Origin: a virus
Length of the DNA: 64,000 nucleotides
UHGV virus genome: UHGV-0010228
Strand: one strand, 5' to 3'
The position numbers and the translations under genes are program-made. Positions 33,781-57,900 of this stretch are shown here, one piece after another; position 1 is the first letter of the stretch, and each line of letters opens with the position of its first letter. A model generated the notes under the pieces. It was not told the DNA's origin. It did not search any database and saw only the letters and a program-made list of their open reading frames with translations.

Positions 33781-33792
33781 CTCTCTATTATT

Positions 33793-34040
33793 TCTCTATT
33801 ACTTTCTCTATTATAACCTATAAATTAATATAATAATATCTATAGTATAGAATAATTATATAATATAATTATTCTATACTATAGATATTATTATATTAAT
33901 TTATAGTATTTTATATTATATATAGATTATAACTATAGAAAGGAGATTATATAATTATGGCTTTTTATAGATGTGATAGAGGATTAGGATTTGATATAAG
34001 TAATAGTACAGGAAATAGTAGTGATGTATTGTATAGTAAG
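33793..34040 (+). repeat. left arm of a ~248-bp near-perfect inverted repeat (promoter region, 71-nt palindrome, RBS and first ~28 codons) shared by convergent paralogues
   Basis: The reverse complement of 37566..37813 is identical over the 164 nt upstream of the ATG and over 57+24 nt of CDS (checked base by base). Confidence 0.85.
33827..33897. promoter_or_regulatory. 71-nt perfect palindrome (AATATAATAATATCTATAGTATAGAATAATTATAT-A-ATATAATTATTCTATACTATAGATATTATTATATT) about 60 nt upstream of the start. Candidate promoter/operator.
   Basis: Exact self-complementarity read from the sequence. A second full copy is at 37709..37779 and half-copies at ~53270..53300 and ~54808..54862. Confidence 0.6.
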
Positions 34041-35744: not shown

Positions 35745-35786
35745 TAAAATATACATACTATCTATTATAGATAGTATGTATTTGAT

Positions 35787-37649: not shown

Positions 37650-37813
37650 AATTATATAATCTCCTTTCTATAGTTATAATCTATATATAATATAAAATAC
37701 TATAAATTAATATAATAATATCTATAGTATAGAATAATTATATAATATAATTATTCTATACTATAGATATTATTATATTAATTTATAGGTTATAATAGAG
37801 AAAGTAATAGAGA
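37566..37813 (-). repeat. right arm of the ~248-bp inverted repeat (includes the palindrome copy at 37709..37779)
   Basis: See left arm. Confidence 0.85.
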
Positions 37814-37827
37814 TATAGAGATATAGA

Positions 37828-39918: not shown

Positions 39919-41934
39919 ATGTCTGAATATATAATAAATGAAATCGGTAGTGCAGAGATGTCTATACCAGACGGTCTTTCAGAAGGTGATACTTTAAGAT
40001 TTAATATTACAAACTCTGATGAAGCAACTGCATATACTGGAACTATAATGAACTGGACAGTTCCTATGGACTTAGTTGTTCAGATAGATGCATATGGATC
40101 TAGAGGTTCATATGGTAACTTATATACATATGGATTAACCGATACATCTAGATCCGGTAATGGTGCACATGTTGGTGGAGTATTTAATTTATCAGCAGGC
40201 TCTGAATTATTAATATTAGTTGGTCAACATGGTAAAGATGCTATGACAGGTACAGGATCTACTAGAGATGGTGTATCTGGTTGCGGTGGTGGAGGAACAT
40301 TTGTTGTCCTTAAAACTGACGAATCAACTGGAAGTTTATTTGTTGGATCTGATACTAATGGATCTAAAGCTGCATATGGTGGATGGTATGTTTCGCCATT
40401 AGTAATTGCTGCAGGTGGCAATGGATCTAAGGATAATGGATATTCCGGAACTGGTCCCGGTAGAGGTGGTTTATCTACAACTTATACATCAAAACCTAGT
40501 TATTCATCATCATTGACAGGTGGTGGATTTGATACTGCATATGGTACAAATAATAGCAATTCATCTTCATATGGATATGGTTTATCATTCTTAAATGGTG
40601 GATTAGGATCTCAGTATGCATATAGTAGATCTAGTATGACACCTAAAGCCGGATTCGGTGGCGGTGGAGGAAACTCCGATGATGGATATGGTGGTGGAGG
40701 TGGTGGATACTACGGCGGTATCCAATCTGCTGCTGCATGCTCATATGTTTCTCCTGATGCTGAATCAGTTATTACTGGTGAGGACGATATTAATGCTGGT
40801 GATGGATATGTTATTATAACTATAATTGAAGGAGGAAAAATATATTCTCCTGAAGTATATATGAGAGATAATGGCGAGATTCATAAATATTCAGATATGA
40901 AAGTATCTGTAAATGGCGAATTAAAAACTATTAAAAACTTCTATTCTAAAATGGATGGAAAATGGGTTAAAATGGCAAGAGAAATTGTAGTATATGAAGC
41001 TGGTAAATCATGGACTCAATCTAATATAGATAGTGGAAGTTTTTATAGTGTATATAATGCTAATGGTATATGGGTAGCTTGTAGTGGTGGTAATGGTCTT
41101 TATTATTCTACAGATGGTAAAGTATGGACTCAATCTAATATAACTAATGATGCTTTTCATACTGTATATAATGCTAATGGTATATGGGTAGCAGGTAATA
41201 ATAATGGTCTATATTATTCTACAGATGGTAAAGCATGGACTCAATCTAATATAACCACTGGAGGTTTTAGACGAGTATATAATGCTAATGGCATATGGGT
41301 AGCATGTGATGCTGATGGTATTTATTATTCTATGGATGGTAAATCATGGACTAAATCTAATATGACTTATGGAACTTATCATGATGCATATAATGCTAAT
41401 GATATATGGGTAGCAGGTGGTAGTGGTAGTCTTTACTATTCTACAGATGGTAAAGTATGGACTCAATCTAATATAGATAATGGTAGTACTACCATCTTTT
41501 TCTCAGTATATAATGCCGATGATATATGGGTAGCAGGTAGTGATAATGGTCTTTATTATTCTACAGATGGTAAAGTATGGACTCAATCTAATATAGATAA
41601 TGGTAGTTTTAATACTGTATATAATGCTAATGGTATATGGGTAGCTTGTAGTGGTGGTAATGGTCTTTATTATTCTACAGATGGTAAAGTATGGACTCAA
41701 TCTAATATAGATAATGGTAATTTTAATACTGTATATAATGCTAATGGTATATGGGTAGCTTGTAGTGATGGTAATGGTCTTTATTATTCTACAGATGGTA
41801 AAGTATGGACTCAATCTAATATAGATAATGGTAATTTTAATACTGTATATAATGCTAATGGTATATGGGTAGCTTGTAGTGATGGTAATGGTCTTTATTA
41901 TTCAGAAACTAGAACAGAATATGTCAATAAATAA
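39919..41934 (+). CDS. tail fibre / receptor-binding protein. Gly-rich N-terminal domain followed by about 8-9 BNR/Asp-box-like 40-aa repeats (GLYYSTDGKVWTQSNIDNGSFNTVYNANGIWVA).
   Basis: ATG with RBS TAAGGAGGTG. The tracked ORF starts 39 nt upstream with no SD. Ends ...LYYSETRTEYVNK. Confidence 0.75.
   Translation: MSEYIINEIGSAEMSIPDGLSEGDTLRFNITNSDEATAYTGTIMNWTVPMDLVVQIDAYGSRGSYGNLYTYGLTDTSRSGNGAHVGGVFNLSAGSELLILVGQHGKDAMTGTGSTRDGVSGCGGGGTFVVLKTDESTGSLFVGSDTNGSKAAYGGWYVSPLVIAAGGNGSKDNGYSGTGPGRGGLSTTYTSKPSYSSSLTGGGFDTAYGTNNSNSSSYGYGLSFLNGGLGSQYAYSRSSMTPKAGFGGGGGNSDDGYGGGGGGYYGGIQSAAACSYVSPDAESVITGEDDINAGDGYVIITIIEGGKIYSPEVYMRDNGEIHKYSDMKVSVNGELKTIKNFYSKMDGKWVKMAREIVVYEAGKSWTQSNIDSGSFYSVYNANGIWVACSGGNGLYYSTDGKVWTQSNITNDAFHTVYNANGIWVAGNNNGLYYSTDGKAWTQSNITTGGFRRVYNANGIWVACDADGIYYSMDGKSWTKSNMTYGTYHDAYNANDIWVAGGSGSLYYSTDGKVWTQSNIDNGSTTIFFSVYNADDIWVAGSDNGLYYSTDGKVWTQSNIDNGSFNTVYNANGIWVACSGGNGLYYSTDGKVWTQSNIDNGNFNTVYNANGIWVACSDGNGLYYSTDGKVWTQSNIDNGNFNTVYNANGIWVACSDGNGLYYSETRTEYVNK
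40990..41905 (+). repeat. tandem ~120-bp coding repeats (about 7.5 units; the last three nearly identical)
   Basis: GGTCTTTATTATTCTACAGATGGTAAAGTATGGACTCAATCTAATATAGATAATGG... recurs with a period of 120 nt. It produces the spurious antisense ORF 41503..41814. Confidence 0.85.
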
Positions 41935-41952
41935 AATTGGGGGTGATATTTC

Positions 41953-42696
41953 ATGAAAATGATGAAAAGAAATAAAACTACCGGTAATCGTGAGATTATT
42001 GGTGGTAGCGTAGCACCTGCTACAATAAAAGTTGAAAATGTTGGTACTGATGTTAAGATAACAACAACTGACCAGGAAGAAACTACAGTAGCAACATTTG
42101 GTAATGGTATAAAAGTTGTAGGTACATTATCTAAAGGTGCTACTGAAATTATACTCAAACATGATCAGATAACTGAAGATAGTATTATTGAATGCTATAG
42201 TAGTGTATACAATGCTAGACCACAAGATATTGAAACTAGTAGTGGGCAGGTTAAATTAACATTTGCTGCTCAGAGTAGTGATATACAAGTTATGATATTA
42301 ATCAAAACTGTAGACATGGGTAAAGTATATCTTGATACAACAGATGCAACAGCAACTGCCAGTGATATCGCTAATGGCAAAACTGCATATGTAAATGGTA
42401 AGAAAATAAGTGGTGGGTTAGAAAACGCTGATTTAATTCATTTAGGAATAACAGACACATCAGAATTGCGCGATTTTGATGATTCAAAAGCAATTGGTGT
42501 TTTATATTCTAGTAATTATAAAATGACTTCTGATAGACTTACCTCCGGAAAATATATTGTTGATATGTCTAATACGGTTATAACTGCATATGCATCATAT
42601 GCTGCATTAGCCGAGGTTATTGGATTAACTGCAGATAAGATTGTAAAAGGCAATACTATATTAGGTATTGCTGGAACTGCAGAAGTATCATCATAA
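41953..42696 (+). CDS. fibre-module protein (N-terminal half paralogous to 42718..43080; C-terminal anchor and collar motifs TATASDIANGKTAYVNGKKISGG and ADKIVKGNTILGIAGTAE)
   Basis: RBS GGGGGTGA. 247 aa. Confidence 0.7.
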   Translation: MKMMKRNKTTGNREIIGGSVAPATIKVENVGTDVKITTTDQEETTVATFGNGIKVVGTLSKGATEIILKHDQITEDSIIECYSSVYNARPQDIETSSGQVKLTFAAQSSDIQVMILIKTVDMGKVYLDTTDATATASDIANGKTAYVNGKKISGGLENADLIHLGITDTSELRDFDDSKAIGVLYSSNYKMTSDRLTSGKYIVDMSNTVITAYASYAALAEVIGLTADKIVKGNTILGIAGTAEVSS

Positions 42697-42717
42697 CTAA
42701 TTGGTGGTGATTGTATT

Positions 42718-43080
42718 ATGAAGTTAATGAGACGAAACAAAACTACTGGTAATAGAGATGCTGTAGGTGAATATATTGATCCTGGGTATTTATCTGTTAC
42801 AACTAGTGGAACTGATATAATAATATCTACGAATAATCCTACTGGAGAAAATACTACCGCTACAGTAAGTAATGGTATTTTAGTAACTGGAAATTTAGCA
42901 GTAGGTGCAACTTCTTTAGTATTAGAAAATCCAAATATTACAACATCAAGCATGTTTGAATGTTATACGTCAAATTATAATATTCGACCTAAGAATATTA
43001 GTGTAGCTGCAGGTAAAGCTACAATAACTTTTATCGCACAAACAGAAGCAGTTACAGTATATTTACTGATAAAAGGATAA
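42718..43080 (+). CDS. small paralogue of the N-terminal domain of 41953..42696 (MKLMRRNKTTGNRD...)
   Basis: RBS GGTGGTGA. 120 aa. Confidence 0.65.
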   Translation: MKLMRRNKTTGNRDAVGEYIDPGYLSVTTSGTDIIISTNNPTGENTTATVSNGILVTGNLAVGATSLVLENPNITTSSMFECYTSNYNIRPKNISVAAGKATITFIAQTEAVTVYLLIKG

Positions 43081-43090
43081 TACATATATT

Positions 43091-43141
43091 AATTACGGTA
43101 TATTCTATATATAGAATATACCGTAATTTCTTTTTTTTTTC
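43091..43141 (+). terminator. rho-independent terminator (ATTACGGTATATTCTATAT/ATAGAATATACCGTAAT followed by T12). Identical copy at 45781..45830.
   Basis: 18-bp perfect stem plus T-run. Confidence 0.85.
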
Positions 43142-43154
43142 TATTATTATGCTA

Positions 43155-43172
43155 TCAAAACATCACAGTAAA
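43155..43172 (+). promoter_or_regulatory. conserved fibre-gene upstream motif TCAAAACATCACAGTAAA
   Basis: Family CAAAACAYCA-YRR-TAAA. Also at 46483..46500, 54941..54958 and 61111..61128, each upstream of a large fibre gene. Confidence 0.5.
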
Positions 43173-43218
43173 CTTAATGCTTTCATTAATTATTTTTTTT
43201 TTGAAAGGAGATGACAGT

Positions 43219-45759
43219 ATGGCTTGGTATGAATATCGAGGAACTACTAATGACAAAGTAATCCCTATAAATACTACAGCAACTGCTGAAGATATAGCAA
43301 CTGGTAAAACTGTATATAGTAATGGTGAAAAAATTGTTGGTAATATAGCATCGATAGGAATTAAAACATATTCCCCAGGAAAGGCAAATATTACTATACC
43401 TAAAAATTATTATTTATCCGGAAATCAGACTATAAAAGGCGATTCAAATTTAATTGCAGCTAATATTATAAAGGGAAAATCAATATTTGGTGTAACTGGA
43501 ACAACCAACGTTGTTAATTATAGAGCTGATACAAAAAACTATACTAGTAGCAGTGAGAATTGTGGCGAAGTGTACAATGGTGTGACAATACCATATATAA
43601 ATGATGCTATGTTGTTTGCGTATCCATCAGAAGCTCAAATTTCTAATAATCGATACTCATCTGGATCGAATCTATTTTTTAGTTCTCTTGGTGGTTATTT
43701 ATGGTATACTATATCATGGTATTATAGATATAACTCGGTTTATCAAAAAGCAAAATATTTACTATATGATCATACACTATCTACAGTAACTGCGATATAT
43801 GGTAATCACTTAGTTAAATTTTTTCAATATCAATATTATATTAACAATGAATCATCTTATGAATGTATTTCAACATATGACTCGAATGTATCATTTAGTT
43901 CAAATTATATATCGATGATATTGAGTGCTGATGATAAATATGTGTATATCAGCGATGTTGGAACGCCATCAACAACAACGGTATATATGGCTAATAATAA
44001 TTCTGGTAGTAGTAAAAACATTACACTCACAAATAAAATTCCATATACATTATGTAGGCCATATTATGAAGAAGAAAAAAATCTATTATTTCATAAAAGG
44101 ATTTATCTTACAGGAAGCGATTCTGCAAATGGTGTATATTATTCATATGATGGAAAAATATGGACTAAGACCAGTATATCATCAGGACAATTTAATATGT
44201 CTGCTAATGTTAAAAGTAGATTAGGATTTATCTCCGTTGGTTCTACATTATACTATTCATATGACGGTATATCGTGGTCTCAATTTTCGAATACTGTTGC
44301 AATGGGCTCTTGTCAAAAATTTGTCAGTGGTACAAATTCAGGACAAAGTATGAATGCTGCTATTGGAAGTGGTGGAAATGAAGGATTGTTATGTATCTCA
44401 CCTTTTAGTGATCTTTCATATGGTGGAGAAATTGACACTACAAACATAACAACGGGAAATTTTCATTATTTAGCGTCAAGTAGCGAATATATAATTGCAG
44501 CATCTGGTGATGATGGTACGCCTATATATTATAGTTATAATGGATATTCATGGGCACAATATGGATCAATAACTTCTTCAGTAAAATGTTTAGAATATGC
44601 TAACGAAATATTTGTATTAGCTACTACCGATGGTATGTATACAAGCAATAAACAGTGTAGTGGTTGGAAAAAAATATCTATCACTGATTCAACGATAGGA
44701 TTTGATTTTGTTTTTTATGGAACTAATAAAGTTTGGGTCGGTGGATATAAAACATTAAATTATGTTTATTACTCAACCGATAATGGTACAACTTGGACTA
44801 AATCTGATGCAATATCCGGCAGTACAGGATTTAGTTCTGGATGTTACAATAGATTTACACAATTATATCTCATAGGTAGTTCGTCAGGAAATGGAATATA
44901 TTATTCAAAAGATGGAATATCGTGGTATCCTAGTGAATTAACATCCCAAACTGTTAATAAATTTATGGTTACAAATACAAATGTTGTTGCATTGACAAAT
45001 GCTGGGGTATATTATTCACATGATGGAGTTGTATGGAATATAACAAATCTTACAAATGCCATATATACAAAGATGAGTTACATTGACGTATTACAACGTC
45101 CAATAATCGATTATGATGTTCTATATGTTAGCACAGGAAGTTCAGATAATACTAATAATGGAGTATGCATGATCGCTGGTTATAATGGATATAATGGATC
45201 ATCTTCCGGATCAATCATATGGTCAATAACTGAAAATTCATCAACATATGGAGCTATAATAGATATTATTACCGATATTGATAATCAATACATTTTTGGT
45301 CTATCTAAAAATGGATATCTGGTGGTTTATAATATACGATCAAAGACATGTGTTGCTAAATTAGTCGATTCTGCTGGTGAAATGTGTAGAATTTCATATA
45401 ACGCAGGAATAATAGCTGTTGGTTATATGTCTAATAATACAAATGTTATAATTAAGACTTTTATATTAAACTATGGAAATACAGATGGAATTAAAAATCT
45501 CATAATCAGGGACTTTACTTCAATCACAACAACATCTTCAGCGTCAGATAATCCACCAAAAATCAAAGCACTTACAATTAATAATGAGGGGATAATTAAG
45601 TTTGGATTATCAAATGGGTATATATCAGCGAGTTATATATGTACAGGTGAATTATATGGCCAAAATATGTTAACATCTGAAGCTATCACAGGTTCACTTC
45701 CAGTGCTAAATGAAGTGGGGGATATTATAGGAACTAAATATTTTAAAACATTTTATTAA
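43219..45759 (+). CDS. tail fibre protein (N-terminal anchor MAWYEY...ATGKTVYSNGEKIVGNIAS, collar NIIKGKSIFGVTGTTN, degenerate Asp-box repeats YYSYDGKIWTKTS etc.)
   Basis: ATG with RBS GAAAGGAGATGA. The tracked ORF begins 42 nt earlier. 847 aa. Confidence 0.7.
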   Translation: MAWYEYRGTTNDKVIPINTTATAEDIATGKTVYSNGEKIVGNIASIGIKTYSPGKANITIPKNYYLSGNQTIKGDSNLIAANIIKGKSIFGVTGTTNVVNYRADTKNYTSSSENCGEVYNGVTIPYINDAMLFAYPSEAQISNNRYSSGSNLFFSSLGGYLWYTISWYYRYNSVYQKAKYLLYDHTLSTVTAIYGNHLVKFFQYQYYINNESSYECISTYDSNVSFSSNYISMILSADDKYVYISDVGTPSTTTVYMANNNSGSSKNITLTNKIPYTLCRPYYEEEKNLLFHKRIYLTGSDSANGVYYSYDGKIWTKTSISSGQFNMSANVKSRLGFISVGSTLYYSYDGISWSQFSNTVAMGSCQKFVSGTNSGQSMNAAIGSGGNEGLLCISPFSDLSYGGEIDTTNITTGNFHYLASSSEYIIAASGDDGTPIYYSYNGYSWAQYGSITSSVKCLEYANEIFVLATTDGMYTSNKQCSGWKKISITDSTIGFDFVFYGTNKVWVGGYKTLNYVYYSTDNGTTWTKSDAISGSTGFSSGCYNRFTQLYLIGSSSGNGIYYSKDGISWYPSELTSQTVNKFMVTNTNVVALTNAGVYYSHDGVVWNITNLTNAIYTKMSYIDVLQRPIIDYDVLYVSTGSSDNTNNGVCMIAGYNGYNGSSSGSIIWSITENSSTYGAIIDIITDIDNQYIFGLSKNGYLVVYNIRSKTCVAKLVDSAGEMCRISYNAGIIAVGYMSNNTNVIIKTFILNYGNTDGIKNLIIRDFTSITTTSSASDNPPKIKALTINNEGIIKFGLSNGYISASYICTGELYGQNMLTSEAITGSLPVLNEVGDIIGTKYFKTFY

Positions 45760-45780
45760 TCTAGAAGTTAAATATCTATT

Positions 45781-45830
45781 AATTACGGTATATTCTATAT
45801 ATAGAATATACCGTAATTTCTTTTTTTTTA
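45781..45830 (+). terminator. second copy of the ATTACGGTATATTCTATAT hairpin terminator
   Basis: Identical 18-bp stem plus T9. Confidence 0.85.
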
Positions 45831-45893
45831 TTAGTATATTATTAAAGTGAATAAATACAATACATAGTATATAATATAAGGAGGAATATTACT

Positions 45894-46424
45894 ATGAAAA
45901 GAATCTCTACTATGGAAGACCTTCGCGAGTTTGCAGATGAAGTAAATACAGTCATCCCAGCTCTGAATGCGGACAAGGAATGTGGTAACGTATATTATGA
46001 TACCGACATAATAGAACAGTGTAGTCTTATAATAGACTATACTGATGAAGAGCACGTTAGTGCTCTGAAGAAGATAGATGAAATTGCTAAGCATCAATTT
46101 CATCTATCTTCTGGTCTGGAGTTGATTCTCCAGATACGGGAATTGTATCAGTTGCGTCGTATTGGTGCACCTGATACTGGGGAGTATGATTACTCCTGTG
46201 GGGCCGAAATGATAATATGTGAACAGGTCCTCAGTACTGCTGAGGCGGCTGAGAAATCTACCATTGAGCAGCGCTGGGGACTTGTTCGACAGGCGGGTGT
46301 TGATATGGAGAAATATTACCCAGTCATCAGCGATGGAAGCCGCTGGGGTGATTATGAGGAGAACGCCAGTGACCTCGCCCAAGTGATAACTGATATTTAT
46401 TTAAAGGGATTATCCCTTAAATAA
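45894..46424 (+). CDS. GC-rich moron: hypothetical 176-aa protein of unknown function (ribosome-binding site and both flanking terminators present)
   Basis: RBS TAAGGAGGAATA. Local GC about 45% versus about 28% nearby. Bracketed by terminators at 45781..45830 and 46441..46470. Confidence 0.65.
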   Translation: MKRISTMEDLREFADEVNTVIPALNADKECGNVYYDTDIIEQCSLIIDYTDEEHVSALKKIDEIAKHQFHLSSGLELILQIRELYQLRRIGAPDTGEYDYSCGAEMIICEQVLSTAEAAEKSTIEQRWGLVRQAGVDMEKYYPVISDGSRWGDYEENASDLAQVITDIYLKGLSLK

Positions 46425-46440
46425 ATATCGTAAAAAATAT

Positions 46441-46470
46441 AAGTTAGGTTTTCCCTAACTTTATTTTTTA
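46441..46470 (+). terminator. hairpin terminator (AAGTTAGG-TTTTCC-CTAACTT followed by a T-run)
   Basis: Follows the moron stop codon. Confidence 0.6.
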
Positions 46471-46482
46471 TACTTATACCTG

Positions 46483-46500
46483 CCAAAACATCACAATAAA
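46483..46500 (+). promoter_or_regulatory. conserved fibre-gene upstream motif CCAAAACATCACAATAAA
   Basis: See 43155..43172. Confidence 0.5.
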
Positions 46501-46545
46501 AATTAATAAAATAAATTATTTTTTGAAAGGAGTTGACTTAAATAT

Positions 46546-49500
46546 ATGCCATGGTTTCCTACATGTGGAGGCGTTGATACATCAGACGCAAATGTAACTC
46601 CAGAAGATGTATTAGAAGGAAAAATAGTATATTCACATAATGGCCCAGTTGTGGGCACAATACCAAGTTTACCAGAAAAAACCTGGATTCCAGGACCTGA
46701 AGAACAGGTAATTCCGGGAGGACATTATATTGCAGGTACACAGACAATTAAAGGTGATCCTAACCTTTATCCAGAAAATATAGTTAAAGGTAAAACTATA
46801 TTTGGTGTAGAAGGCACAGGTATACCTGTGGAATTTAACGATCCAACATTTATTGAAAAATTGTGCGTATCAGATTTTAAAGGTAAAGTTGATTTCTCTA
46901 AAGATTCCGAATATTTCTATACTTATGGTACTTCAATTATTAATAAACATAATTCGACAACTGGAGAAGTTATATGGTCTCAATCAATATCTGATGATAC
47001 TAAAAAAATATATTCAAATTTATATATAACACCAGATGATCTTCTTATATATTATGGATCTAAAAATGGATATTTAAATTCAATAATAGCAGATTCAGGA
47101 ATTTCTCATTTAAGTGTTAAGGTATTAGATACAACAAAATCTGTTGAATATATAAAGGGTATTGAAAATTATAAAGGTTCAACATTCAGCTTATTATTAT
47201 TTGTGCCAAATACAACAGTTATTGGAAGGGTAGATTTTATTGACACGTCTACTAATAATATAGAAACAATTACTATACCATCTAGTTATTCTATCGATGT
47301 CGATGATAAGGATATCTATTATTATTGCAATTCTTCTTCTCCAAGAAAGATATGCAAGATATGTACAGATTCAGCGGATAATTATGAAATTGAAACTGGA
47401 ACTATAAATAGTTATGGAATACAACCTGATGGAAAATATTTATACACAGTAGCTAAGGTTGATAATACTACTGATAAATTATCACAGTATAATGCAGAAA
47501 CTGGTGCATTAGTACGTAGTGTGAACGTTGATGTAAACACCCGTGATAACTGCTCATTACTTATTACGGATAGTTTATCGGAATATATATATCTTCAAAA
47601 TACTAGAACTATATATAGATACTCAACTGATTTGTTGTTAAATTATGCTAATAACCCATTTTTATTTACAGATGGTACAGTGTCCAGTGCTGTTGATAGT
47701 GCTAGTGTTGATAGTAATGGAGAATATGTATATGTATCATATTTAAGTGAAGATACCTCTGAGTTGTATAAATATAAGCAGGTATTTGGATCAATATACC
47801 CATTGGAAAATCCGGATCCTTATATCAATATAGATAGAATTATTAAGAGAAAGAAAGATACTTATAAAACATATGAAACCCCAGTAGAAATCTGGGATGA
47901 TGAATATGATTCAGAAATTGACTCTATTAGTTGTACTGATGATGGTCATTATGTATACATATGCACGCAGAATAATGGATTTATAAAAATGAATTCTGTA
48001 AATAAGAAAATTATATGGTCATATAATGATGGTATGTCAGGATATGTAGTTGTAGATCATAATGATAAGTATGTATATGTAGCAACGAATAGTGCATTAA
48101 CTAAACTTGACGCATCAAATGGTAATGTTGTAATTTCATTATCAGATTATGCAAGATCTAGAACTGCTGCATATTCTATACAGAATATGACTATTACAGA
48201 TGATAATGAATATTTAGTATATATTAATAACAATAGTAGCTCTGCAAGTAGTAGTAAAATTGTTAAATTTAAAACTTCAGATATGAGTGTTAAATGGGAA
48301 AAGACACCTCATACTAATTACATTAACCAATTAGATTTAGTAAGTAAAACTGGAGATATATATTTCAATAAATCTTCTCAGATACCTATTGAAACGGATT
48401 ATATTCTTCCATTCACTGGTGGTGTAAATAATGTAGTATATTTTAATAGTAAATATTTATTATTACCTAATAAAACTTTCATTACTAATAGTGAAACTAA
48501 TACAACTGAGTTTACTTATTACTTAGGCGATACTCTTAATATAGCGTATATGGAAAAGCACACTATTAGTACTGATGGGATGAATACTAATTTTAGCGAT
48601 TATACGATAACCAAAATAGTTGCATCTTCATATGTGTGTATTATATATGTAAAAGGCATTGACAATGCATCATTAACTGAAAGTGAAACTTCATTAAATA
48701 AATATTATTATACTTATGATGGCGTAAATTGGAGTGAGGGTTCATTTGGTTTATACTGCCCAACGTCAAATATTATTAATTGTAGTAATACATTTATATA
48801 TTCGGCATCGGATAAGAGTACATATAATAAATTATTCTCATCATATGATGGAATAAATTGGACTGAGAATACTAATTATACAGATACATATACTAATGGT
48901 ACTGTATGGGGATTAGGATATGTCAATTCAAGATATTTATTAGTATCTAATATATTACAATATTCTACAGATTTTAAAACTTTTAGTACTGCAACTATTG
49001 CTAGTTTGCCTAGTGAAACTGCTGTTGGTGAGAATTTTGCTAATAAATATGGAGAAATTCACTGTGTTTATATATATAGCAGATATTATTTAGCTTGTGC
49101 TGATGGAATATATTATTCGTCTGATTTAAATACTTGGACAAAATGTACATTTACTTATCCGACTAGTGCGGATTTTCCTTCCGAATTATCTTACCCATTA
49201 TTAATGACCAACTATAGTAATTATATATATATTATAGAATCTGCTAGTGGTAATACAGCTGAAATATCGAATTATGTAAGATCAATTTATATTACTTCAA
49301 CATCACAGACATCTTTCAATGTAACTAATATTAAAGCTGCACCATTATTAAGTGAAACATCATCAACATCAACATTATTTGTAACTGGTGGATGTGTAAG
49401 TGATAATGCTATTGCCGGTCTTTATTATTCTACAGATGGTAAAACATGGACTCAGTCTAATCTAACAACTGGACTTTTTAGCGATGTGTGTAATTTTGAT

Positions 49501-52500
49501 ATATGGGTAGCAGGTAGTAGTGATGATGGACTTTATTATTCTATAGATGGTAAAACGTGGACTCAATCTAATATAACAACTGGTCATTTTAGTGCTGTAT
49601 ATAATACTACTGGCATATGGATAGCAGGTAGTAGTATTTTTGATAGTAAAGGTCTTTATTATTCTACAAATGGTAAAACATGGTTTCAATCTAATATAAC
49701 AAGCGGAGGATTCTATACTATAAATTATGCTAATGATATATATCTAGCTTGTGGGGAAGGACTTTATTATTCTACAGACGGTAAAACATGGGAAAAGACT
49801 ACTGTGAGTGGAGGATATCTGACTAGTGGGGGTTTTAGAAATGCATATTACGCTGATGCTATGTGGGTAGTGTGTAGTAATGATGACTATTGCTCTTATT
49901 ATTCTAAAGATGGTAAAGCGTGGGCGCAATGTGAACCAGCTGTCGAAGAGGATGTATTTTGTAATATAGTATATTATTCTAATAAGAGTATATGGGTAGC
50001 TGGTAGTGAGCAAAGTAATGGATTGCAATACTCTACAAATGGTATGTCGTGGACTCAGTCTAATATAAGCACTGGAATTATTAGAACGGTGTGTTATGGT
50101 AATAATATAGTTATAGCTGGTGGATATAACACTGGTATATATTATTCTACAGATGGTAAAACGTGGACTCAATCTAATACAACCACTGGATCTTTTAATT
50201 TACTTTATTATTATGAGGATATATATATAGCTGTTAGTGGCAATAATAAAGGTCTTTATTATTCTACAGATGGTAAAACATGGACTCAATCTAATATAAC
50301 TAGTGGAAGTTTTATGACTTCTATAGGTGAATCATACCACCCAGTTACAACAAATAACAACAATAATTACATCTACTGTAATAGTAGATTAGCATCTTTC
50401 CCTGCGGTTACTGCTGATGATACTCATAGTAATACTAAATATAGTATTGGATCATTAGAGAATTCTAAAATTCAACAATTAACTTATCAGGATACTAGAA
50501 CTACTAATACAACATATTACGGATTATCTACATTTAATAATTCAACAGCAATATTATTAGGTCAATTCGAAGGGGCGAATCAAATTACTGATAATTATGC
50601 ATATTCTACAGATAGTGGAGCAACATGGACTGGTGCGCATATGCCTAAAAAAGGCGAATGGATACATGTCGGAAAATTAATGAGTAAATATATTGCAGTA
50701 TGTAATAGTAGTAATAATTTAGCAATATATGAATCGTCAGATGGGAAATCATGGTCACAGGGATCTATAACAAATTCCAATGGTAACGCATTAGCAAATA
50801 ACATGATATCTATAAATAACGATGAAAATGATGTTAAAATAAAAGTAATAACTAGTCCACTTATATCATCATTTGCAATAATCGTTTATACAACAATTGG
50901 CATAAATGTTGAAGGATATTATGTTTCATCTTCATTAAGCACTGGAAGTGCATTTAAAGTACAAAATTTCTCATCAAATATGACATCAACCCCATTATGT
51001 GCTATAAACGATACTTCACAAAAATGTATGTTTTTAGGTTGGAGTAATAATGGTAAATTTATGTACAGTGATGATATGCTATTATCACTCATGAATGGTG
51101 ATTACTATACTGAAGTTACATCTTCAGAATCAATATCAAACTGGGATATGTATTCTGAAATAACAGGTGTAAAACTTTCAGATACTCAATATTTAGTATC
51201 GATGCAACCAACTTCATCATCAAGCTTAGTTAAAGTAGGATTGCTCGATACAAGTGCAAATACTTTAACATTTAGAGCGTCAACGTGGTATAATGGTAGA
51301 TTTGTTGCTCCAGCAAATGGTAAGTTATATGCACTTAATACTTATAGTGTAAATGGAAATAGTGGTGGAGGTAAATTTACATCTATAACAAACTATGACA
51401 CAACTAATACTGTAAAAGATGATGTTCTTCCGTCAGATCTATCATCATCTATAAGTAAAAATGATAAAACATATACTACATTATGCTCTTCAGGTACAAA
51501 TCTTATTACAGTTATAAATGGTGAACCATATGCATATTATACTAAGAACCCATTAGTAATTTCTGGTGGTGATGATAGATATATTAGAGCTATAGATTTC
51601 TTAACTGGAAATACAATATGGTCATTCTCATTATCATATGCTGCAAATGGTATATATGTAAGTGATGATAAGAAGTTTGTATATGCTACAGTAAATGGCA
51701 ATTCATCATCAGCTAATCTTTATAAATATAATATTAATGCTACTAATTTATCTTCAATGAAGTATTCTACTAATTCATATTCTAGTGCAATATTCGGTAA
51801 TGGAGATAAGATATTTACTGTTAAAAGTTCTAATGGTGGTATATTAGCCGCATATGATCCTGAATATCTTACAAATGATTATTCACTTACAGGTGCTAAT
51901 GATACATCAACTGGACAGGAATATGGTAGATGTTTAACTTATGATTCTGCTGGTGATTATATATATGCTGGTACTTATATGAATACTGGCAAAGGCCATT
52001 TACATAAATATAAATTAAAAGAAATTGAATATGAAAAGATAGCAAGGGTATATAAGACTACTACAACAGGAGAAGATACTGAGGGAAAGGTATGGACTCA
52101 ATCTAATATAAATAGTGGAGATTTTTATACAGTGTATTATGGTAATAGTATATGGGTAGCCGGCAGTATTAGCGGTAAAGGTCTTTATTATTCTACAAAC
52201 GGTAAAGTATGGACTCAATCTAATATAACTAGTGGAGATTTTAGATCTGTATATAATGCTAATGGTATATGGGTAGCTGCTAGTGATAGTGATAATGGTC
52301 TATATTATTCTACAGATGGTAAAGTATGGACTCAATCTAATATAAATAGTGGATATTTTTATACAGTGTATTATGATAATAGTATATGGGTAGCTTGTAG
52401 TGGTAAAGGTATATTTTATTCTACAGATGGTAAATCATGGACTCAATCTAATATAAATAGTGGAGATTTTTATACAGTGTATAATGCTAATGGTATATGG

Positions 52501-53007
52501 ATAGCTGGTGGTATTGATACTGGTCTTTATTATTCTACAAACGGTAAAGTATGGACTCAATCTAATATAACTAGTGGAGATTTTAGATCTGTATATAATG
52601 CTAATGGTATATGGGTAGCTGGTAGTGATAGTGATAATGGTCTATATTATTCTACAGATGGTAAAGTATGGACTCAATCTAATATAGATAATGGTAGTTT
52701 TAATACTGTATATTATGCTAATGATATATGGGTAGCTGGTAGTAGTGTTAATAAAGGTCTTTATTATTCTACAGATGGTAAATCGTGGACTCAATCTAAT
52801 ATAACTAGTGGAGATTTTAGATCTGTATATAATGCTAATGGTATAATTATTGCTGGTAGTTATAGTAGTAATGGTATATTTTATTCTACAGATGGTAAAT
52901 CATGGATTCAATCTAATATAAATAGTGGAGATTTTTATACTGTATATAATGCTAATGGTATATGGGTAGCTGGTAGTATTGATACTGGTCTTTATTATTC
53001 AGAATAA
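46546..53007 (+). CDS. giant (2153 aa) multidomain tail fibre/adhesin. N-terminal anchor, two YVTN-type beta-propeller-like regions, two arrays (about 10 and about 12) of BNR/Asp-box-like repeats. C-terminus ...GLYYSE.
   Basis: RBS GAAAGGAG. Collar NIVKGKTIFGVEGTGIP. Repeats such as GIQPDGKYLYTVAKVDNTTDKLSQYNAETGALV and LYYSTDGKTWTQSNITTGHFSAVYNTTGIWIAG. Confidence 0.8.
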   Translation: MPWFPTCGGVDTSDANVTPEDVLEGKIVYSHNGPVVGTIPSLPEKTWIPGPEEQVIPGGHYIAGTQTIKGDPNLYPENIVKGKTIFGVEGTGIPVEFNDPTFIEKLCVSDFKGKVDFSKDSEYFYTYGTSIINKHNSTTGEVIWSQSISDDTKKIYSNLYITPDDLLIYYGSKNGYLNSIIADSGISHLSVKVLDTTKSVEYIKGIENYKGSTFSLLLFVPNTTVIGRVDFIDTSTNNIETITIPSSYSIDVDDKDIYYYCNSSSPRKICKICTDSADNYEIETGTINSYGIQPDGKYLYTVAKVDNTTDKLSQYNAETGALVRSVNVDVNTRDNCSLLITDSLSEYIYLQNTRTIYRYSTDLLLNYANNPFLFTDGTVSSAVDSASVDSNGEYVYVSYLSEDTSELYKYKQVFGSIYPLENPDPYINIDRIIKRKKDTYKTYETPVEIWDDEYDSEIDSISCTDDGHYVYICTQNNGFIKMNSVNKKIIWSYNDGMSGYVVVDHNDKYVYVATNSALTKLDASNGNVVISLSDYARSRTAAYSIQNMTITDDNEYLVYINNNSSSASSSKIVKFKTSDMSVKWEKTPHTNYINQLDLVSKTGDIYFNKSSQIPIETDYILPFTGGVNNVVYFNSKYLLLPNKTFITNSETNTTEFTYYLGDTLNIAYMEKHTISTDGMNTNFSDYTITKIVASSYVCIIYVKGIDNASLTESETSLNKYYYTYDGVNWSEGSFGLYCPTSNIINCSNTFIYSASDKSTYNKLFSSYDGINWTENTNYTDTYTNGTVWGLGYVNSRYLLVSNILQYSTDFKTFSTATIASLPSETAVGENFANKYGEIHCVYIYSRYYLACADGIYYSSDLNTWTKCTFTYPTSADFPSELSYPLLMTNYSNYIYIIESASGNTAEISNYVRSIYITSTSQTSFNVTNIKAAPLLSETSSTSTLFVTGGCVSDNAIAGLYYSTDGKTWTQSNLTTGLFSDVCNFDIWVAGSSDDGLYYSIDGKTWTQSNITTGHFSAVYNTTGIWIAGSSIFDSKGLYYSTNGKTWFQSNITSGGFYTINYANDIYLACGEGLYYSTDGKTWEKTTVSGGYLTSGGFRNAYYADAMWVVCSNDDYCSYYSKDGKAWAQCEPAVEEDVFCNIVYYSNKSIWVAGSEQSNGLQYSTNGMSWTQSNISTGIIRTVCYGNNIVIAGGYNTGIYYSTDGKTWTQSNTTTGSFNLLYYYEDIYIAVSGNNKGLYYSTDGKTWTQSNITSGSFMTSIGESYHPVTTNNNNNYIYCNSRLASFPAVTADDTHSNTKYSIGSLENSKIQQLTYQDTRTTNTTYYGLSTFNNSTAILLGQFEGANQITDNYAYSTDSGATWTGAHMPKKGEWIHVGKLMSKYIAVCNSSNNLAIYESSDGKSWSQGSITNSNGNALANNMISINNDENDVKIKVITSPLISSFAIIVYTTIGINVEGYYVSSSLSTGSAFKVQNFSSNMTSTPLCAINDTSQKCMFLGWSNNGKFMYSDDMLLSLMNGDYYTEVTSSESISNWDMYSEITGVKLSDTQYLVSMQPTSSSSLVKVGLLDTSANTLTFRASTWYNGRFVAPANGKLYALNTYSVNGNSGGGKFTSITNYDTTNTVKDDVLPSDLSSSISKNDKTYTTLCSSGTNLITVINGEPYAYYTKNPLVISGGDDRYIRAIDFLTGNTIWSFSLSYAANGIYVSDDKKFVYATVNGNSSSANLYKYNINATNLSSMKYSTNSYSSAIFGNGDKIFTVKSSNGGILAAYDPEYLTNDYSLTGANDTSTGQEYGRCLTYDSAGDYIYAGTYMNTGKGHLHKYKLKEIEYEKIARVYKTTTTGEDTEGKVWTQSNINSGDFYTVYYGNSIWVAGSISGKGLYYSTNGKVWTQSNITSGDFRSVYNANGIWVAASDSDNGLYYSTDGKVWTQSNINSGYFYTVYYDNSIWVACSGKGIFYSTDGKSWTQSNINSGDFYTVYNANGIWIAGGIDTGLYYSTNGKVWTQSNITSGDFRSVYNANGIWVAGSDSDNGLYYSTDGKVWTQSNIDNGSFNTVYYANDIWVAGSSVNKGLYYSTDGKSWTQSNITSGDFRSVYNANGIIIAGSYSSNGIFYSTDGKSWIQSNINSGDFYTVYNANGIWVAGSIDTGLYYSE
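49405..50320 (+). repeat. tandem ~120-bp coding repeats (first BNR-like array of the giant gene)
   Basis: Periodic ...TATTATTCTACAGATGGTAAAACATGGACTCAATCTAAT... Confidence 0.75.
52081..53004 (+). repeat. tandem ~120-bp coding repeats (C-terminal BNR-like array). Units are about 95-100% identical to those at 41.5-41.9 kb and 62.3-64 kb.
   Basis: The 70-mer TATTATTCTACAGATGGTAAAGTATGGACTCAATCTAATATAGATAATGGTAGTTTTAATACTGTATAT occurs at ~41563 and ~52653. Confidence 0.85.
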
Positions 53008-53693: not shown

Positions 53694-54704
53694 TTAATTT
53701 GGCGATACTATTAATTTAGATATAATTGCGCTTATTCTGGTATAATGAGATGATAAATATTTAGTTTTTTTGAGAATGAGTTCATGTATATTAGTTCCTG
53801 TACGGCCGTCACCTATGCGTTGTCGTGCAATACGTAATCCGTTGTCATTTTTCATATTAAATTCGTAATTTCCATGATGAGTTTTTAACTCATTCAGTCT
53901 GTTATTGATAAAATTTAAGATAATACCGGCGCTCTTGTTTAATTTCGATACTTTATTTAAAAGTGTAATATAATGTTTTTCAACACTAGGTATCTTACTC
54001 GTTAATAGATTAGATCCTTTATTCGCTATACTATTTTCCAATTTTGTTAATTGAGAATCAATCTCATCATTAGAATAACGACGGCTATTATCCTCATAAT
54101 ATTCTAAGCGATCTTCTGCCTTATCATCTGATATTATTTTTGTTCCTCGTTTAGCTTCGAGAATTATTATATTTAACGCTTCGTTATATCTATTAGCTTC
54201 CACATCTATATAATCTGCTATTCTTACCAAGAATCTCAAATCAATTTCTAAGTCTTTTTTCAATTGATTACCTTTTAATTTAGGGCTTTTATATCTACTA
54301 GTCTTTTCAGGCTCTGGTAAACTTTTAACTATTGGCTTATCTTCTTCTTTACCATCACTTTTTAATCTTCTTCTAGTTATATTCTTACCTCTACCTTTAG
54401 CAAATTTATTAGATGTAGAAGTAGATAAATTATCTTCATCATTTTCTTCTGGATATGGTTCTTCTTCATCTTCTTCTTCTATTGATTTATTTCCTCTATT
54501 TTTAATAAAGTTTTTAACAGATTCCCACGCTTTCTTTATCTTTTTACCTAATTCTCCTAATTTATTCGTTATAGTTTCCCATATTTTCTTTAACCATCCC
54601 CATATAGTACTACCTACATTTTTTACTTTATCTATAATACCTTCATATGCATAATCATTATCTATTATATTATATGATTCTAATGTATTATATAAATCAA
54701 ACAT
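53694..54704 (-). CDS. alpha-helical hypothetical protein, MFDLY family copy 2 (336 aa; N-terminal 36 aa identical to 37910..38734)
   Basis: RBS GGAGGTATTATA identical to copy 1. Confidence 0.65.
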   Translation of the reverse strand: MFDLYNTLESYNIIDNDYAYEGIIDKVKNVGSTIWGWLKKIWETITNKLGELGKKIKKAWESVKNFIKNRGNKSIEEEDEEEPYPEENDEDNLSTSTSNKFAKGRGKNITRRRLKSDGKEEDKPIVKSLPEPEKTSRYKSPKLKGNQLKKDLEIDLRFLVRIADYIDVEANRYNEALNIIILEAKRGTKIISDDKAEDRLEYYEDNSRRYSNDEIDSQLTKLENSIANKGSNLLTSKIPSVEKHYITLLNKVSKLNKSAGIILNFINNRLNELKTHHGNYEFNMKNDNGLRIARQRIGDGRTGTNIHELILKKTKYLSSHYTRISAIISKLIVSPN

Positions 54705-54785: not shown

Positions 54786-54898
54786 TCTATTCTCTATTAT
54801 AACCTATAAATTAATATAATTATTCTATACTATAGATATTATTATATTAATTTATAGGTAAATAAGAGAGAAAGTAATAGATAGAGTAATGATAGATA

Positions 54899-54926
54899 GA
54901 GTATACATCGTCTTAGATGTATACTC
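54899..54926 (+). terminator. hairpin (GAGTATACAT-cgtcttag-ATGTATACTC) between the promoter module and the fibre gene
   Basis: 10-bp stem. It overlaps the tracked but unlikely ATG at 54917. Confidence 0.4.
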
Positions 54927-54940
54927 ATATATTATTCGCC

Positions 54941-54958
54941 TCAAAACACCATGATAAA
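54941..54958 (+). promoter_or_regulatory. conserved fibre-gene upstream motif TCAAAACACCATGATAAA
   Basis: See 43155..43172. Confidence 0.5.
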
Positions 54959-54997
54959 TTTTATATAAACCATAAATCCCTGAAAGGAGTGATTATA

Positions 54998-57900
54998 TTG
55001 GCATGGTATACAGCAGTTAATGCACATGATACATCAGATGCTACTGCATCTGATAATGATATTAGAAAAGGTAAAACTGCATATGTTAATAATAAATTAG
55101 TTACTGGTACAATGCCAGAAAAAGCTGCTGCTACATATACACCATCAACGAAAGATCAAACTATAACTAGTGGAGTATATTTAGCCGGAGATCAGACTAT
55201 AAAAGGAGATTCTAATCTCATATCTGATAATATAGTTAGAAAAAAATCAATATTTGGAGTTGAAGGAAATCAAATTCCTATAGAATTTAATGATCAAGTA
55301 AAGATGCTGAGTGGGATTACTCACGAAACTATAACCTATGATAATGAAAAAATATTAACATCTTTTAATAAAAATACCAATGCCGCTGTAATAATGAGCG
55401 CAATTAGATTAAATGATGAAAATTATAATGTAACGAAAGTTTATTCATATAAGATATTATTTACATATTTGTCATTAGATACATATGATGTAGTATCATC
55501 ATCAACATTCATTATTTGTAGATCTAAAATTGATGGTTATGCTGATAGTGATACTGATGAAATAATACAATCTAGAAATAACTTTACTACTACAAATTTC
55601 TTTCCTGTAACTGAAAGACCAATGATAACTAGTATTTCATTAGAAAATGATGGAATAGTACTTGTATCTATGAGAGGAATCAGTTCATACATTGGATCTG
55701 GTGCTAATTTTCAAAATATAGCAAAAATCGATCTGAAAAACGGAAAATTGATATCAACAATGTCAATTCTTGATGATTATGTAAATCATATATCAAATGC
55801 AGTTAATTGTGTGAAAATGATTGATGATAATATTTATATAGATGGTCCTGCAACACAGCCGGGATTAAATTATATAACAGTTGATGGTGCATATTCAATA
55901 TCGCCATACTCATCGGCAATTAATGGATATATATTATATGAATATCATAATGATATAAGCACTGAACCTATACAATATTATGTTGTAACCGAACAATATA
56001 ATTCATCGTTAGGTATATATGAACCAAAACTATCTGAGAAAAAACAGATCCCAGCATATGGTTGGTGTATGGATAGATACTCTAGAATTATGCTTACTGA
56101 TTATCATAATGCTAATGTCTGGGACTATATATGTTATTTTAACGGATATTACTATATAATATTTGGTTTGGCATATGATGATCATTTATTAAGAACTACA
56201 GATTTTTCTAATTTTGATTATATTAGCTTTACTGATGATTTTAAAATTTCATTTTACAGTAATCGAACTGCCATGGTATCTGCTCTTATTTCAGATACAG
56301 TAAATAATAAATTATTATTTTTATGCACTGACGATCATCGTTTTGCTATATATGATGGTACTACTAATAAAACATCATATTTAGCCTTACCATATGATAA
56401 CTATAATACAGGATATAATGGATTTACAACACTTAGAAGTGCGGCATTTGACTATAATAAAACCTTCGTATTTCATTTTGGACAAAATAGTGCAAATTCA
56501 AAAGATTATCCAGATCCAACGAATAACTATATTTTCGTGACAACAAATTATGGATCGTCATACACAGTTATTGACATTAAAGATATCTTTTCAGAAGCTA
56601 TACAAAATCAGCTAAGCGGTTATTCGATTAATTATGGCATTGGTCTTGGATATATAAATGAAGCTTTTTATATATTTTCAACAGCTAGAAATTCTAATTC
56701 ATCGAGTTATAATAGCTATGTTATAATATCTAAATCTATTGATGGACTTAATTGGGAAACACCTACATTAGTATATAATAGCGACACATATTATACAACA
56801 CATTCAAAAAAAAGTATTGCCGGTGATAGTAATAATACTATAGTAATCATAACCACATCAGAACGAAATAATGATGATAGTACAAGAGTAGGATATATAT
56901 ATTCAAGGGATAATGGGGTATCATGGTCATCAATAAATACATTAAGATCTTCTTTTACTGCGAATGGTACTATCGCAACCTCAATTGCATATGGTAATGG
57001 AAAATTTATTGTTACAATTAGCTGTTCTGATGATGATTATGTTAGAATATACTATAGTACAAATGGGTCGTCGTGGTCAAGCACATCTTTATCAATCAAT
57101 AGTGATAAAGAGTGTTGTTATAGAGTTTCGTATTGTAATGATCGCTTTATAATGATGCCATCATGGGGCTATAGATTTTTTTATAGCACAGATGGTATAT
57201 CTTGGACATCATCTGCTGCGCTATATAATAGAGGATCATGCAAAATAACTATAAAACCATATATGCTGACTGATTCTAGATACTCATTGTATTTTAACAA
57301 TTCTTCATATTCTTCACAATATCTTGAAAAGATATTATACATTGTACCGGACTATTGTTCGAGTCTTGGTTGGAGCAGTTATGGTATAAATAAAACGATA
57401 GGAACTCTTGATGGCTCATCGTGGTATTTGTATAAACGTAATGATTCTTTTTCTATTTCAGCTCCTGATTGGTTATCTGATACTTACTATCCTAATAAAA
57501 GTTACGAATGTGATGATGAGAAATCCTTTACAAATAATATTTATATTGGCATGAGTTATGGTACAGACCCAACCTCATCAATATATGGAAAGTACCCATT
57601 TTACACAACTAATGGGCGACAGATATATGCATGGACAGCAATGATTTCTGTGCTTGCTCAGCTTAAATCAATTACTACCAATATGGTTGATTATTTTTGT
57701 GTATTCTATAGCACATATTATAATAAATATTTAATTATACTTACTATATATGATAAACCGAATTCAAAACGTGTTACGTATATGTACTATACCACATCTA
57801 TCGGAACTGCAACTGTAAATAGTTACAATTTTGATTCTGCCGATTTTCACGACAATTTTGTTTCTGCTATAGATATGTCCACTCTTAGTATGTATGAAGA

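Follow-up and report, generated by a model that had tools for sequence, protein, structure and literature searches.

Can a phage keep remodelling its host-binding proteins by recombining short repeats that its own genes share? Phages vary such proteins by mosaic exchange, by invertible segments and by diversity-generating retroelements. The question is raised by a 64,000-nucleotide stretch of the virus genome UHGV-0010228 (hereafter the window), which covers the region of tail and fibre genes in an AT-rich jumbo myophage of about 225-257 kb from human gut metagenomes, and in which fibre-like genes carry tandem arrays of near-identical in-frame repeats. An earlier note made from the DNA letters (the original prediction) had proposed that these repeats encode propeller blades which the phage could expand, contract or swap between fibres. 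In following up this idea computationally, we found that the repeats are real and well delimited and that assemblies of related phages differ in blades, arrays and whole propellers. We consider it probable, with substantial room for doubt, that recombination of near-identical blades varies the fibre proteins and gives rapid variation in host-receptor binding. The idea of the original prediction holds better than its identity numbers.

The repeats lie in plus-strand genes. Gene A (39919..41934) encodes 671 amino acids from the ATG used in relatives, its open reading frame (ORF) opening at 39880; the giant gene (46546..53007; 2153 amino acids) contains several propeller regions; and gene C (61146..>64000), which is cut by the window end, has a conserved N-terminal domain followed by a long array. 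Cutting the arrays into units at the GLYYS motif gave four in-frame arrays of 111-126-bp units, all inside large ORFs and all on the plus strand. Array A (40990..41907) consists of a partial unit A0, the units A1-A7 of 111-120 bp each and a closing strand GLYYSE. Array M (49417..50364, units M1-M8) sits in the middle of the giant gene and is more diverged, its units being 64-88% identical at the nucleotide level to each other and to those of the other arrays. Array B (52066..53004, units B0-B7 and GLYYSE) forms the C-terminal propeller of the giant gene, and array C (62343..64000) comprises no fewer than 14 complete units, C1-C14, followed by the beginning of a fifteenth. Tandem Repeats Finder (TRF) reported repeats at 41001-41903 (period 114, 7.9 copies, score 1116), 52090-53000 (period 117, 7.9 copies, score 1177) and 62312-64000 (14.6 copies, score 1526), together with one at 49420-49702 in the giant gene. 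TRF and the unit tables agree that the repeats are real, in frame and shared between genes, as had been predicted.

The identity between genes had been put at 95-100%, which proved too high. Units of different genes are 70-95% identical with means of about 85% (A-B 85.6%, A-C 85.1%, B-C 84.6%), and the means within arrays are 87.8% for A, 86.3% for B and 84.8% for C. Specifically, the units A5-A7 at 41.5-41.9 kb match the B units at 78.5-94.7% (mean 87.9%) and the C units at 62.3-64 kb at 77.3-91.2% (mean 86.2%). Identities of 96-100% are confined to single arrays: A6 and A7 are identical, A5 and A6 share 98%, B1 and B4 99%, and B3 and B7 96%. The units C4 and C7 reach 95% with a 76-bp exact tract. 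Exact tracts run up to 135 bp inside array A and 100 bp inside array B; across arrays the maxima are 69 bp (A and B), 50 bp (A and C) and 43 bp (B and C). The pair A6 and A7 forms an exact tandem duplication (41655..41903, plus strand) with a 135-bp exact match at an offset of 114, and this is the most collapse-prone stretch.

The shared gene ends that had been pointed out were confirmed. The fibre-like gene 31695..33509 ends in GFLYSE, the giant gene in GLYYSE and gene A in GLYYSETRTEYVNK, each directly before the stop codon. A homologous BspA-like surface protein, encoded by an Erysipelotrichaceae metagenome-assembled genome, has seven full motifs and ends in ...GIYYSEGT, and many metagenomic homologues likewise have seven full motifs and a final xYYS(E/V) strand. 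Since bacterial and metagenomic homologues share this type of end, the YYSE ending is a normal C-terminal closure and not in itself a recombination scar.

The unit consensus is GLYYSTDGKxWTQSNIxxGxFxxVYNANGIWVAGxxx, and a unit has about 38 residues (range 37-42). We modelled the eight-unit array A with AlphaFold2 from an alignment of the arrays in the window itself. The model was all-beta, with a predicted local distance difference test (pLDDT) score of 90.5 and a predicted template modelling score (pTM) of 0.86, and DSSP assigned four strands per unit in the order FxxVYNA, IWVAG, GLYYS and WTQSN. The top Foldseek matches in the PDB were the eight-bladed designer propellers Tako8/Ika8 (6g6m-6g6o; E about 1e-11, query-normalised TM score 0.66-0.72), followed by the eight-bladed WD40 propellers of Fbw7 and Cdc4, BamB (TM 0.64-0.71) and the seven-bladed Ycf48, although sequence identity to these solved structures is only 9-17%. 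The eight units are thus confidently predicted to fold into an eight-bladed beta-propeller, in agreement with the earlier reading of the units as blades. Arrays A, B and M have eight cores each, and gene C probably forms two rings.

The family membership of these blades is less clear-cut than their predicted fold. Array B passes the cut-off of the Pfam family DUF6242 (PF19755; 31.1 bits against 29), array A falls below it with 22.9 bits, and arrays C and M gave no match to this family; precomputed matches of orthologs to PF25852 (DUF6242_C) are flagged as 'faint'. The BNR models PF02012 and PF13088 did not match arrays A, B, C or M even at E<=10, and Pfam gave no match to WD40 or NACHT. The unit motif S-T-D-G-K-x-W is similar to an Asp-box, yet has one residue fewer than the classical S-x-D-x-G-x-T-W. 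A PDB sequence search with array B returned chance-level matches only. A tblastn search with the same array against 50,697 GenBank phages gave a single weak match (33% identity), annotated as 'photosynthesis system II assembly factor'. Similar propellers, in proteins named after the BNR repeat or DUF6242, are predicted for a large number of uncultured Caudovirales (17-26% identity).

The comparison with related genomes, which the original prediction had called for, was made next. Exact matches to small conserved proteins led to 27 related loci, and a homologue led to one more (individual loci bear L numbers below); their flanks are 95-100% identical, and related contigs, 223-257 kb in length, were assembled from metagenomes of the human gut, Hadza samples among them. 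Blade, array and module differences were found, all of them in short-read assemblies. Gene A has eight cores in the window and in the identical protein P0125, encoded on a 256,540-bp NCBI/ENA contig. In L003 it has seven cores owing to a 114-bp deletion with 135 bp of junction homology and is otherwise identical, and in L002 it has six, with a 228-bp deletion, 47 bp of junction homology and one substitution. The L002 gene carries a hybrid unit that is absent from the window.

Gene C varies more widely. Its orthologs measure 964, 1086, 1124 and 1162 amino acids and contain 11, 14, 15 or 16 cores, against at least 14 in the window. L014/L015 have 16 cores, L016 has 15 and L012 has 14, and these genes are 100.00% identical over 3.1-3.4 kb barring exact deletions of 114, 117 and 111 bp. 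The deletion junctions in L016 and L012 fall within 47-58 bp of shared sequence and produce hybrid units, and the flanks of these loci carry 0-9 substitutions in 5-6.5 kb (99.8-100% identical). Gene C of L013 equals that of the window minus 345 bp, or three units, with 4 mismatches in 2508 bp; the deletion lies between C4 and C7, and its junction is their 76-bp exact tract. The proposed expansion and contraction of blades thus finds support in in-frame unit deletions with hybrid junctions, while the seven-blade form of gene A may be an assembly collapse.

Differences extend beyond single blades. The first 1100 nucleotides of gene C are 98-100% identical between strain groups (window against L014), and the region downstream is 99.7% identical (measured on L013, which has a window-type gene C), whereas the units of the two groups have no collinear ortholog, their best matches reaching 84-94%. 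With such a conserved frame around non-collinear units, the array can be described as a hypervariable cassette. Array B, in turn, can be missing as a block. The giant gene is 2153 amino acids long in the window, in L003, where it is identical, and in L004. An allele of 1843 amino acids, present on five contigs from five assemblies (L002, L005, L006, L007 and L009), is the same as the window up to 52065 and then ends in ...KTTTSES without array B; the genes downstream of it are other than those in the window. Some gene A orthologs of 359-361 amino acids stop before the propeller. In L028, whose flanks are about 95% identical, gene A is reduced to its glycine-rich domain (361 amino acids), and an eight-unit propeller is fused to the first 154 amino acids of the ortholog of 41953..42696, a plus-strand neighbour of gene A with 247 amino acids and no propeller in the window. 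Those 154 residues are 95% identical. The segment order is therefore domain, N154 and propeller in L028 (2051-4590), against domain, propeller, N154 and a 93-amino-acid C-terminal tail in the window (39919-42696), the tail being missing in L028. Whole propellers are gained, lost or carried by another gene among these relatives.

The surroundings of array B differ together with it. In the other strain group, the segment 52066-54811, which holds array B and a minus-strand gene of 336 amino acids (53694..54704), is exchanged for a minus-strand gene of 226 amino acids and a pair of 595 and 573 amino acids (L002 from 16176 onward; L012 791-5441). A hairpin, AGTGAATGACTAATATTAGTCATTCACT, at about 53.39 kb is kept in both versions and is probably a terminator that marks the swap point.

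We next consider what the units themselves say about exchange. Their similarity is far above chance and above the level expected from protein conservation alone: where two units carry the same residue, the codon is also the same in 87-89% of comparisons across arrays and 86-92% of those inside an array, against about 50% expected from phage codon usage. Synonymous divergence (dS, Nei-Gojobori method) is 0.238 within arrays and 0.214 between them, and the best unit matches show no positional orthology between arrays. Since divergence is equal within and between arrays and positional orthology is lacking, neither separate amplification in situ nor one duplication of a whole array is a good fit; the pattern would instead fit one pool of units with turnover and exchange. 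A tract of 69 bp in A5 (41554..41622, plus strand) is identical to 52645..52713 in B5 and spans the variable loop DNGSFNT, so that B5 carries an A-type loop; the two units are 95% identical. This pair is the only candidate in this genome for exchange of a single blade or loop between genes. A search for donors of array B among all window units and three other strains found none above 92-95%, hence no recent copy event into array B can be named. The idea of blade swapping between fibres therefore stands for whole propellers, which do change gene, while for single blades it rests on this one candidate.

Variation within the unit is concentrated. Amino-acid variation falls at unit positions 10, 17-20, 25-26 and 37-41, and codon positions 1 and 2 are more variable than position 3. 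Judging from strand order and an antiparallel meander topology, the loops 17-20 and 37-41 should share one face of the propeller, with the NANG turn and the STDGK hairpin on the opposite one; the face with the variable loops is presumed to bind the ligand.

These observations suggest the following mechanism. In arrays A, B and C the blades still have 80-100% of their DNA in common, and their exact tracts of 43-135 bp would let homologous recombination pair blades out of register; in bacteria and phages, homologous recombination usually becomes efficient at tracts of about 25-30 bp, and those here are longer. Unequal crossing-over, replication slippage or gene conversion could then yield in-frame blade loss or gain and hybrid blades, and recombination with diverged donors could reshuffle arrays inside conserved gene frames. 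At domain borders, recombination might move whole propellers between fibre genes, and occasionally blade segments. Selection on two loops of one face would keep new binding surfaces. Under this mechanism, recombination rather than assembly error would have made every allele, and the variant propeller proteins would presumably be functional.

Several points weigh against recombination as the source of this variation. The copy-number evidence stems entirely from metagenomes assembled out of short reads (MEGAHIT k141, SPAdes and MERR22 scaffolds), and, as the original prediction had warned, such contigs break repeatedly inside the arrays, which weakens that evidence: at least 10 contig ends lie in arrays A, B or C. 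For example, Scaffold_2003 (99.98% identical to the window) spans 41735 to 62983 and Scaffold_17 from the same sample stops near 41598; L005, L007, L008, L010 and L011 begin at 41.3-41.84 kb, L008 and L010 end at 52.16-52.20 kb, and L018-L021 end at 62.4-63.0 kb. The seven-blade gene A equals the window minus one exact duplicate unit with a 135-bp junction, just as collapse would give. At most, gene A has 8 blades and gene C 16; the 16-blade allele of gene C (1162 amino acids) occurs on 4 contigs, whereas its 15- and 14-blade alleles are singletons. An AlphaFold2 model of the six-blade gene A allele had low to moderate confidence, its pLDDT being 59.6 overall and about 60-89 in the propeller, with an alignment much thinner than that used for array A. 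For the match between A5 and B5, chance identity at the five most variable positions was estimated at about 0.06 over 64 A-by-B pairs, so the match is marginal. With a best identity of 95% between genes, no very recent transfer between genes is visible in the genome. Finally, the ratio of nonsynonymous to synonymous divergence (dN/dS) takes an overall value of 0.84, falling to 0.33 in core codons and rising to 2.3 in 11 variable ones; this highest value is inflated because the 11 were picked after the variation was seen.

The assembly data suggest the most serious alternative, namely that the true arrays are fixed at 8 blades in A and B and 16 in C, and that assemblers collapsed or skipped near-identical units. 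The contig ends inside arrays, the short-read origin of every allele and the fact that MEGAHIT contigs have the shortest arrays all speak for it. However, junctions of 47-58 and 76 bp are far below the final k of 141 of the MEGAHIT contigs with three deletion alleles, and from the way such assemblers work, 141-mers over a hybrid junction with shorter homology should need real reads. The six-blade gene A, moreover, has a hybrid unit combination and a substitution not found in the window. Nor can collapse yield the absence of array B with other downstream genes on five contigs, the propeller-less gene A orthologs, the relocated propeller of L028 or the non-collinear gene C arrays of the two strain groups. 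We therefore regard artefact as an unlikely explanation, yet one to be taken seriously.

A second alternative, to which we give still less credence, is a static recent amplification, in which young duplications were kept alike by purifying selection and codon bias, with no current exchange and no role in generating variation. The low dN/dS of the core codons, a strong genomic codon bias and the ceiling of 95% identity for unit pairs of different genes are in its favour. It has difficulty, however, with codon agreement so far above the expected level, with synonymous divergence that is no higher between arrays than within them and the lack of positional orthology, with nearly identical strains that differ by unit insertions and deletions alone, and with arrays that differ sharply within 98-100% identical frames. 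Targeted hypermutation of the variable loop residues, for instance by a diversity-generating retroelement, could account for variation focused on few codons per unit but is scarcely credible and was rejected for want of an adenine bias, the mean variability at sites with consensus base A, C, G and T being 0.125, 0.128, 0.118 and 0.095, respectively; in addition, no reverse transcriptase was found among the roughly thirty larger window ORFs scanned, a subset of all ORFs, no template and variable repeat pair is evident, and whole-unit insertions and deletions are not a product of such an element.

Recombination among near-identical blades remains our preferred reading of the locus. A bolder proposal goes further and is one that we put forward only tentatively, judging it rather doubtful as a whole: a pool of at least 30 near-identical blades may act as a diversification device that needs neither retroelement nor invertase, producing new blade orders, hybrids and functional rings of six, seven or eight blades, with propellers moving between fibre genes and selection acting on two loops of the binding face.

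The genomic setting is consistent with a role at the host surface. PHROG and tblastn matches place a terminase gene at 3017-5338 and a tail sheath gene at 9080-10945, and the window also encodes a baseplate-hub-like protein and tail-fibre-like proteins. Upstream of the fibre-like genes are those for the terminase, sheath and baseplate hub; neighbours of the fibre-like genes match tail-fibre families of PHROG and Pfam, and several of the fibre-like genes have in common a motif of the form T-A-x-D-I-x-x-G-K-T, seen in the translations. From this context, the propeller proteins would be fibre tips or receptor-binding proteins. The terminase is closest to those of the Bacillus jumbo phages BpSp, Goe21 and AR9/PBS1 and of Staphylococcus S6-like phages (28-35% identity), and, judged by this protein, the phage appears to be distantly related to the AR9/PBS1/BpSp and Staphylococcus S6 group. 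The region 38-54 kb had no megablast match among the 50,697 GenBank phages.

Further copies of the propeller occur in the plus-strand fibre-like genes 31695..33509 and 43177..45759, which hhalign matched to the array profile (probability 99.7%, E 2e-25, and probability 99.5%, E 3.5e-23, respectively). These propellers look like old, diverged copies of the array propeller, so that the paralogous family would span a range from diverged to nearly homogeneous arrays. One beta-propeller family thus appears to be present in at least five genes of the region, and the fibre cluster seems to use more than one kind of propeller. The ORF 54917..59269 (1450 amino acids; 1423 in relatives) has a sub-threshold match to BNR_2 (25 bits against a cut-off of 31.4), and residues 466-529 of the giant gene form a PQQ_2/BamB-like stretch. 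The N-terminal glycine-rich domain of gene A matches the Pfam family ALK_LTK_GRD (PF12810) with 27.2 bits against a cut-off of 24.5, at 40084-40827 or residues 69-316 of the ORF counted from 39880. Many metagenomic homologues of about 645 amino acids carry one or two such domains without any propeller, and a scan of IMG/VR with this domain found no relative.

Two other variable sites lie among these genes. A cassette of about 4 kb at 33789-37817 (GC content 25%) holds the convergent ORFs 33957..35744 (plus strand) and 35787..37649 (minus strand), neither with a family match. It is flanked by 260-nucleotide inverted repeats (33789-34048 and 37558-37817; 98% complementary), which contain a 107-nucleotide palindromic AT-rich element and the first 30 or so codons of both ORFs. 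L001 and L002 have no cassette at this site; in these two, the same 595-amino-acid gene and a 573-amino-acid partner instead follow the 1843-amino-acid giant gene, where the pair adjoins a third copy of the element core (window 54823-54839). The cassette may be a mobile or invertible segment, or the repeats may be a shared promoter acting as a recombination site. A homing endonuclease or mobility gene was sought beside array B and in the 33.8-37.8 kb cassette, with no Pfam or PHROG match. The other site is a gene for a DHH/DHHA1-like protein (59889-61016, minus strand), which lies between fibre genes and whose two Pfam matches are below the cut-offs. It occurs as two alleles of 375 and 364 amino acids (window; L012, L014, L016). 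Its 3' end (about 60306-60470, on the side away from gene C) had no megablast match between strain groups, and the intergenic region with the start of the gene (L014 5809-6480 against L013) is about 83% identical, compared with 97-100% for the flanking genes. Sequence comparison thus points to this gene as a second divergence hot spot, beside gene C.

If true, a recombining pool of blades would add a further route of variation that requires no dedicated enzyme. Several hundred metagenomic proteins carry the array-type propeller, so many gut phages not yet cultured could be searched for this route. Gain and loss of blades in propellers have so far been explored mainly in designed proteins, and the locus offers a natural test of whether a closed propeller tolerates either. 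There is also a practical side: short-read assembly is likely to break the fibre genes of such phages or give them a wrong size, which affects host-range prediction and strain tracking.

How, then, does this locus compare with known systems? The predicted fold is that of Tako8/Ika8, BamB, Fbw7 and Cdc4, and array B, alone among the four arrays, passes the Pfam cut-off of DUF6242. A limited literature search for phage propellers under concerted evolution returned none, which is no proof of absence; the nearest phage precedent it gave is that of the crAss-like gut phages. Their tail-associated proteins carry tandem arrays of the BACON domain, a presumed host binder, and these arrays arose through duplication and horizontal transfer (de Jonge et al. 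2019, PMC6949934). The likeness is that of a gut phage with tandem repeats in a presumed host-binding protein of the tail region. However, a BACON unit is a whole domain that folds by itself, and such units follow one another like beads on a string, whereas the units here are single blades of a closed ring, so that adding or removing one alters the ring itself; in addition, the DNA identity of units is much higher here. Periscope proteins of Gram-positive bacteria, as described by Whelan et al. (2021, PMC8201768), also have near-identical in-frame DNA repeats; these make surface proteins differ in length from strain to strain, and sizing them takes long reads. Their repeats are rigid rods that set a projection distance, in contrast to a closed globular propeller at a presumed binding tip.

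The strongest resemblance is to the nwd/hnwd genes (het-d, het-e, het-r) of Podospora anserina, whose WD40 repeats are reported to be highly conserved internally, to be polymorphic in number, to evolve in concert both inside a gene and across paralogs, and to be under positive selection at a few surface residues (Paoletti et al. 2007, PMC1805685; Chevanne et al. 2010, PMC2873952). In that fungal system, repeat instability was shown directly in 143 mutants, with deletions, duplications and hybrid units arising by recombination (PMC1805685, PMC2873952). Likewise, similar blade DNA occurs here in several paralogs, with mean identities of 85-88% within and 85-86% between arrays and maxima of 100% and 95%, and repeat number differs between strains with hybrid units, in our case from assemblies only. 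Unlike the fungal proteins, which are eukaryotic and intracellular with WD40 fused to NACHT, ours are fibre-like phage proteins with non-WD40, Asp-box-like blades; here the evidence comes solely from comparison, and support for exchange between genes is weak. If the proposal is true, the blade pool would be a phage counterpart of the WD40 repeats in fungal NOD-like receptors (NLRs) and an instance of natural blade-number plasticity in a working propeller. By analogy, the fungal NLR repeats appear to be the closest working analogue, alike in behaviour and different in family.

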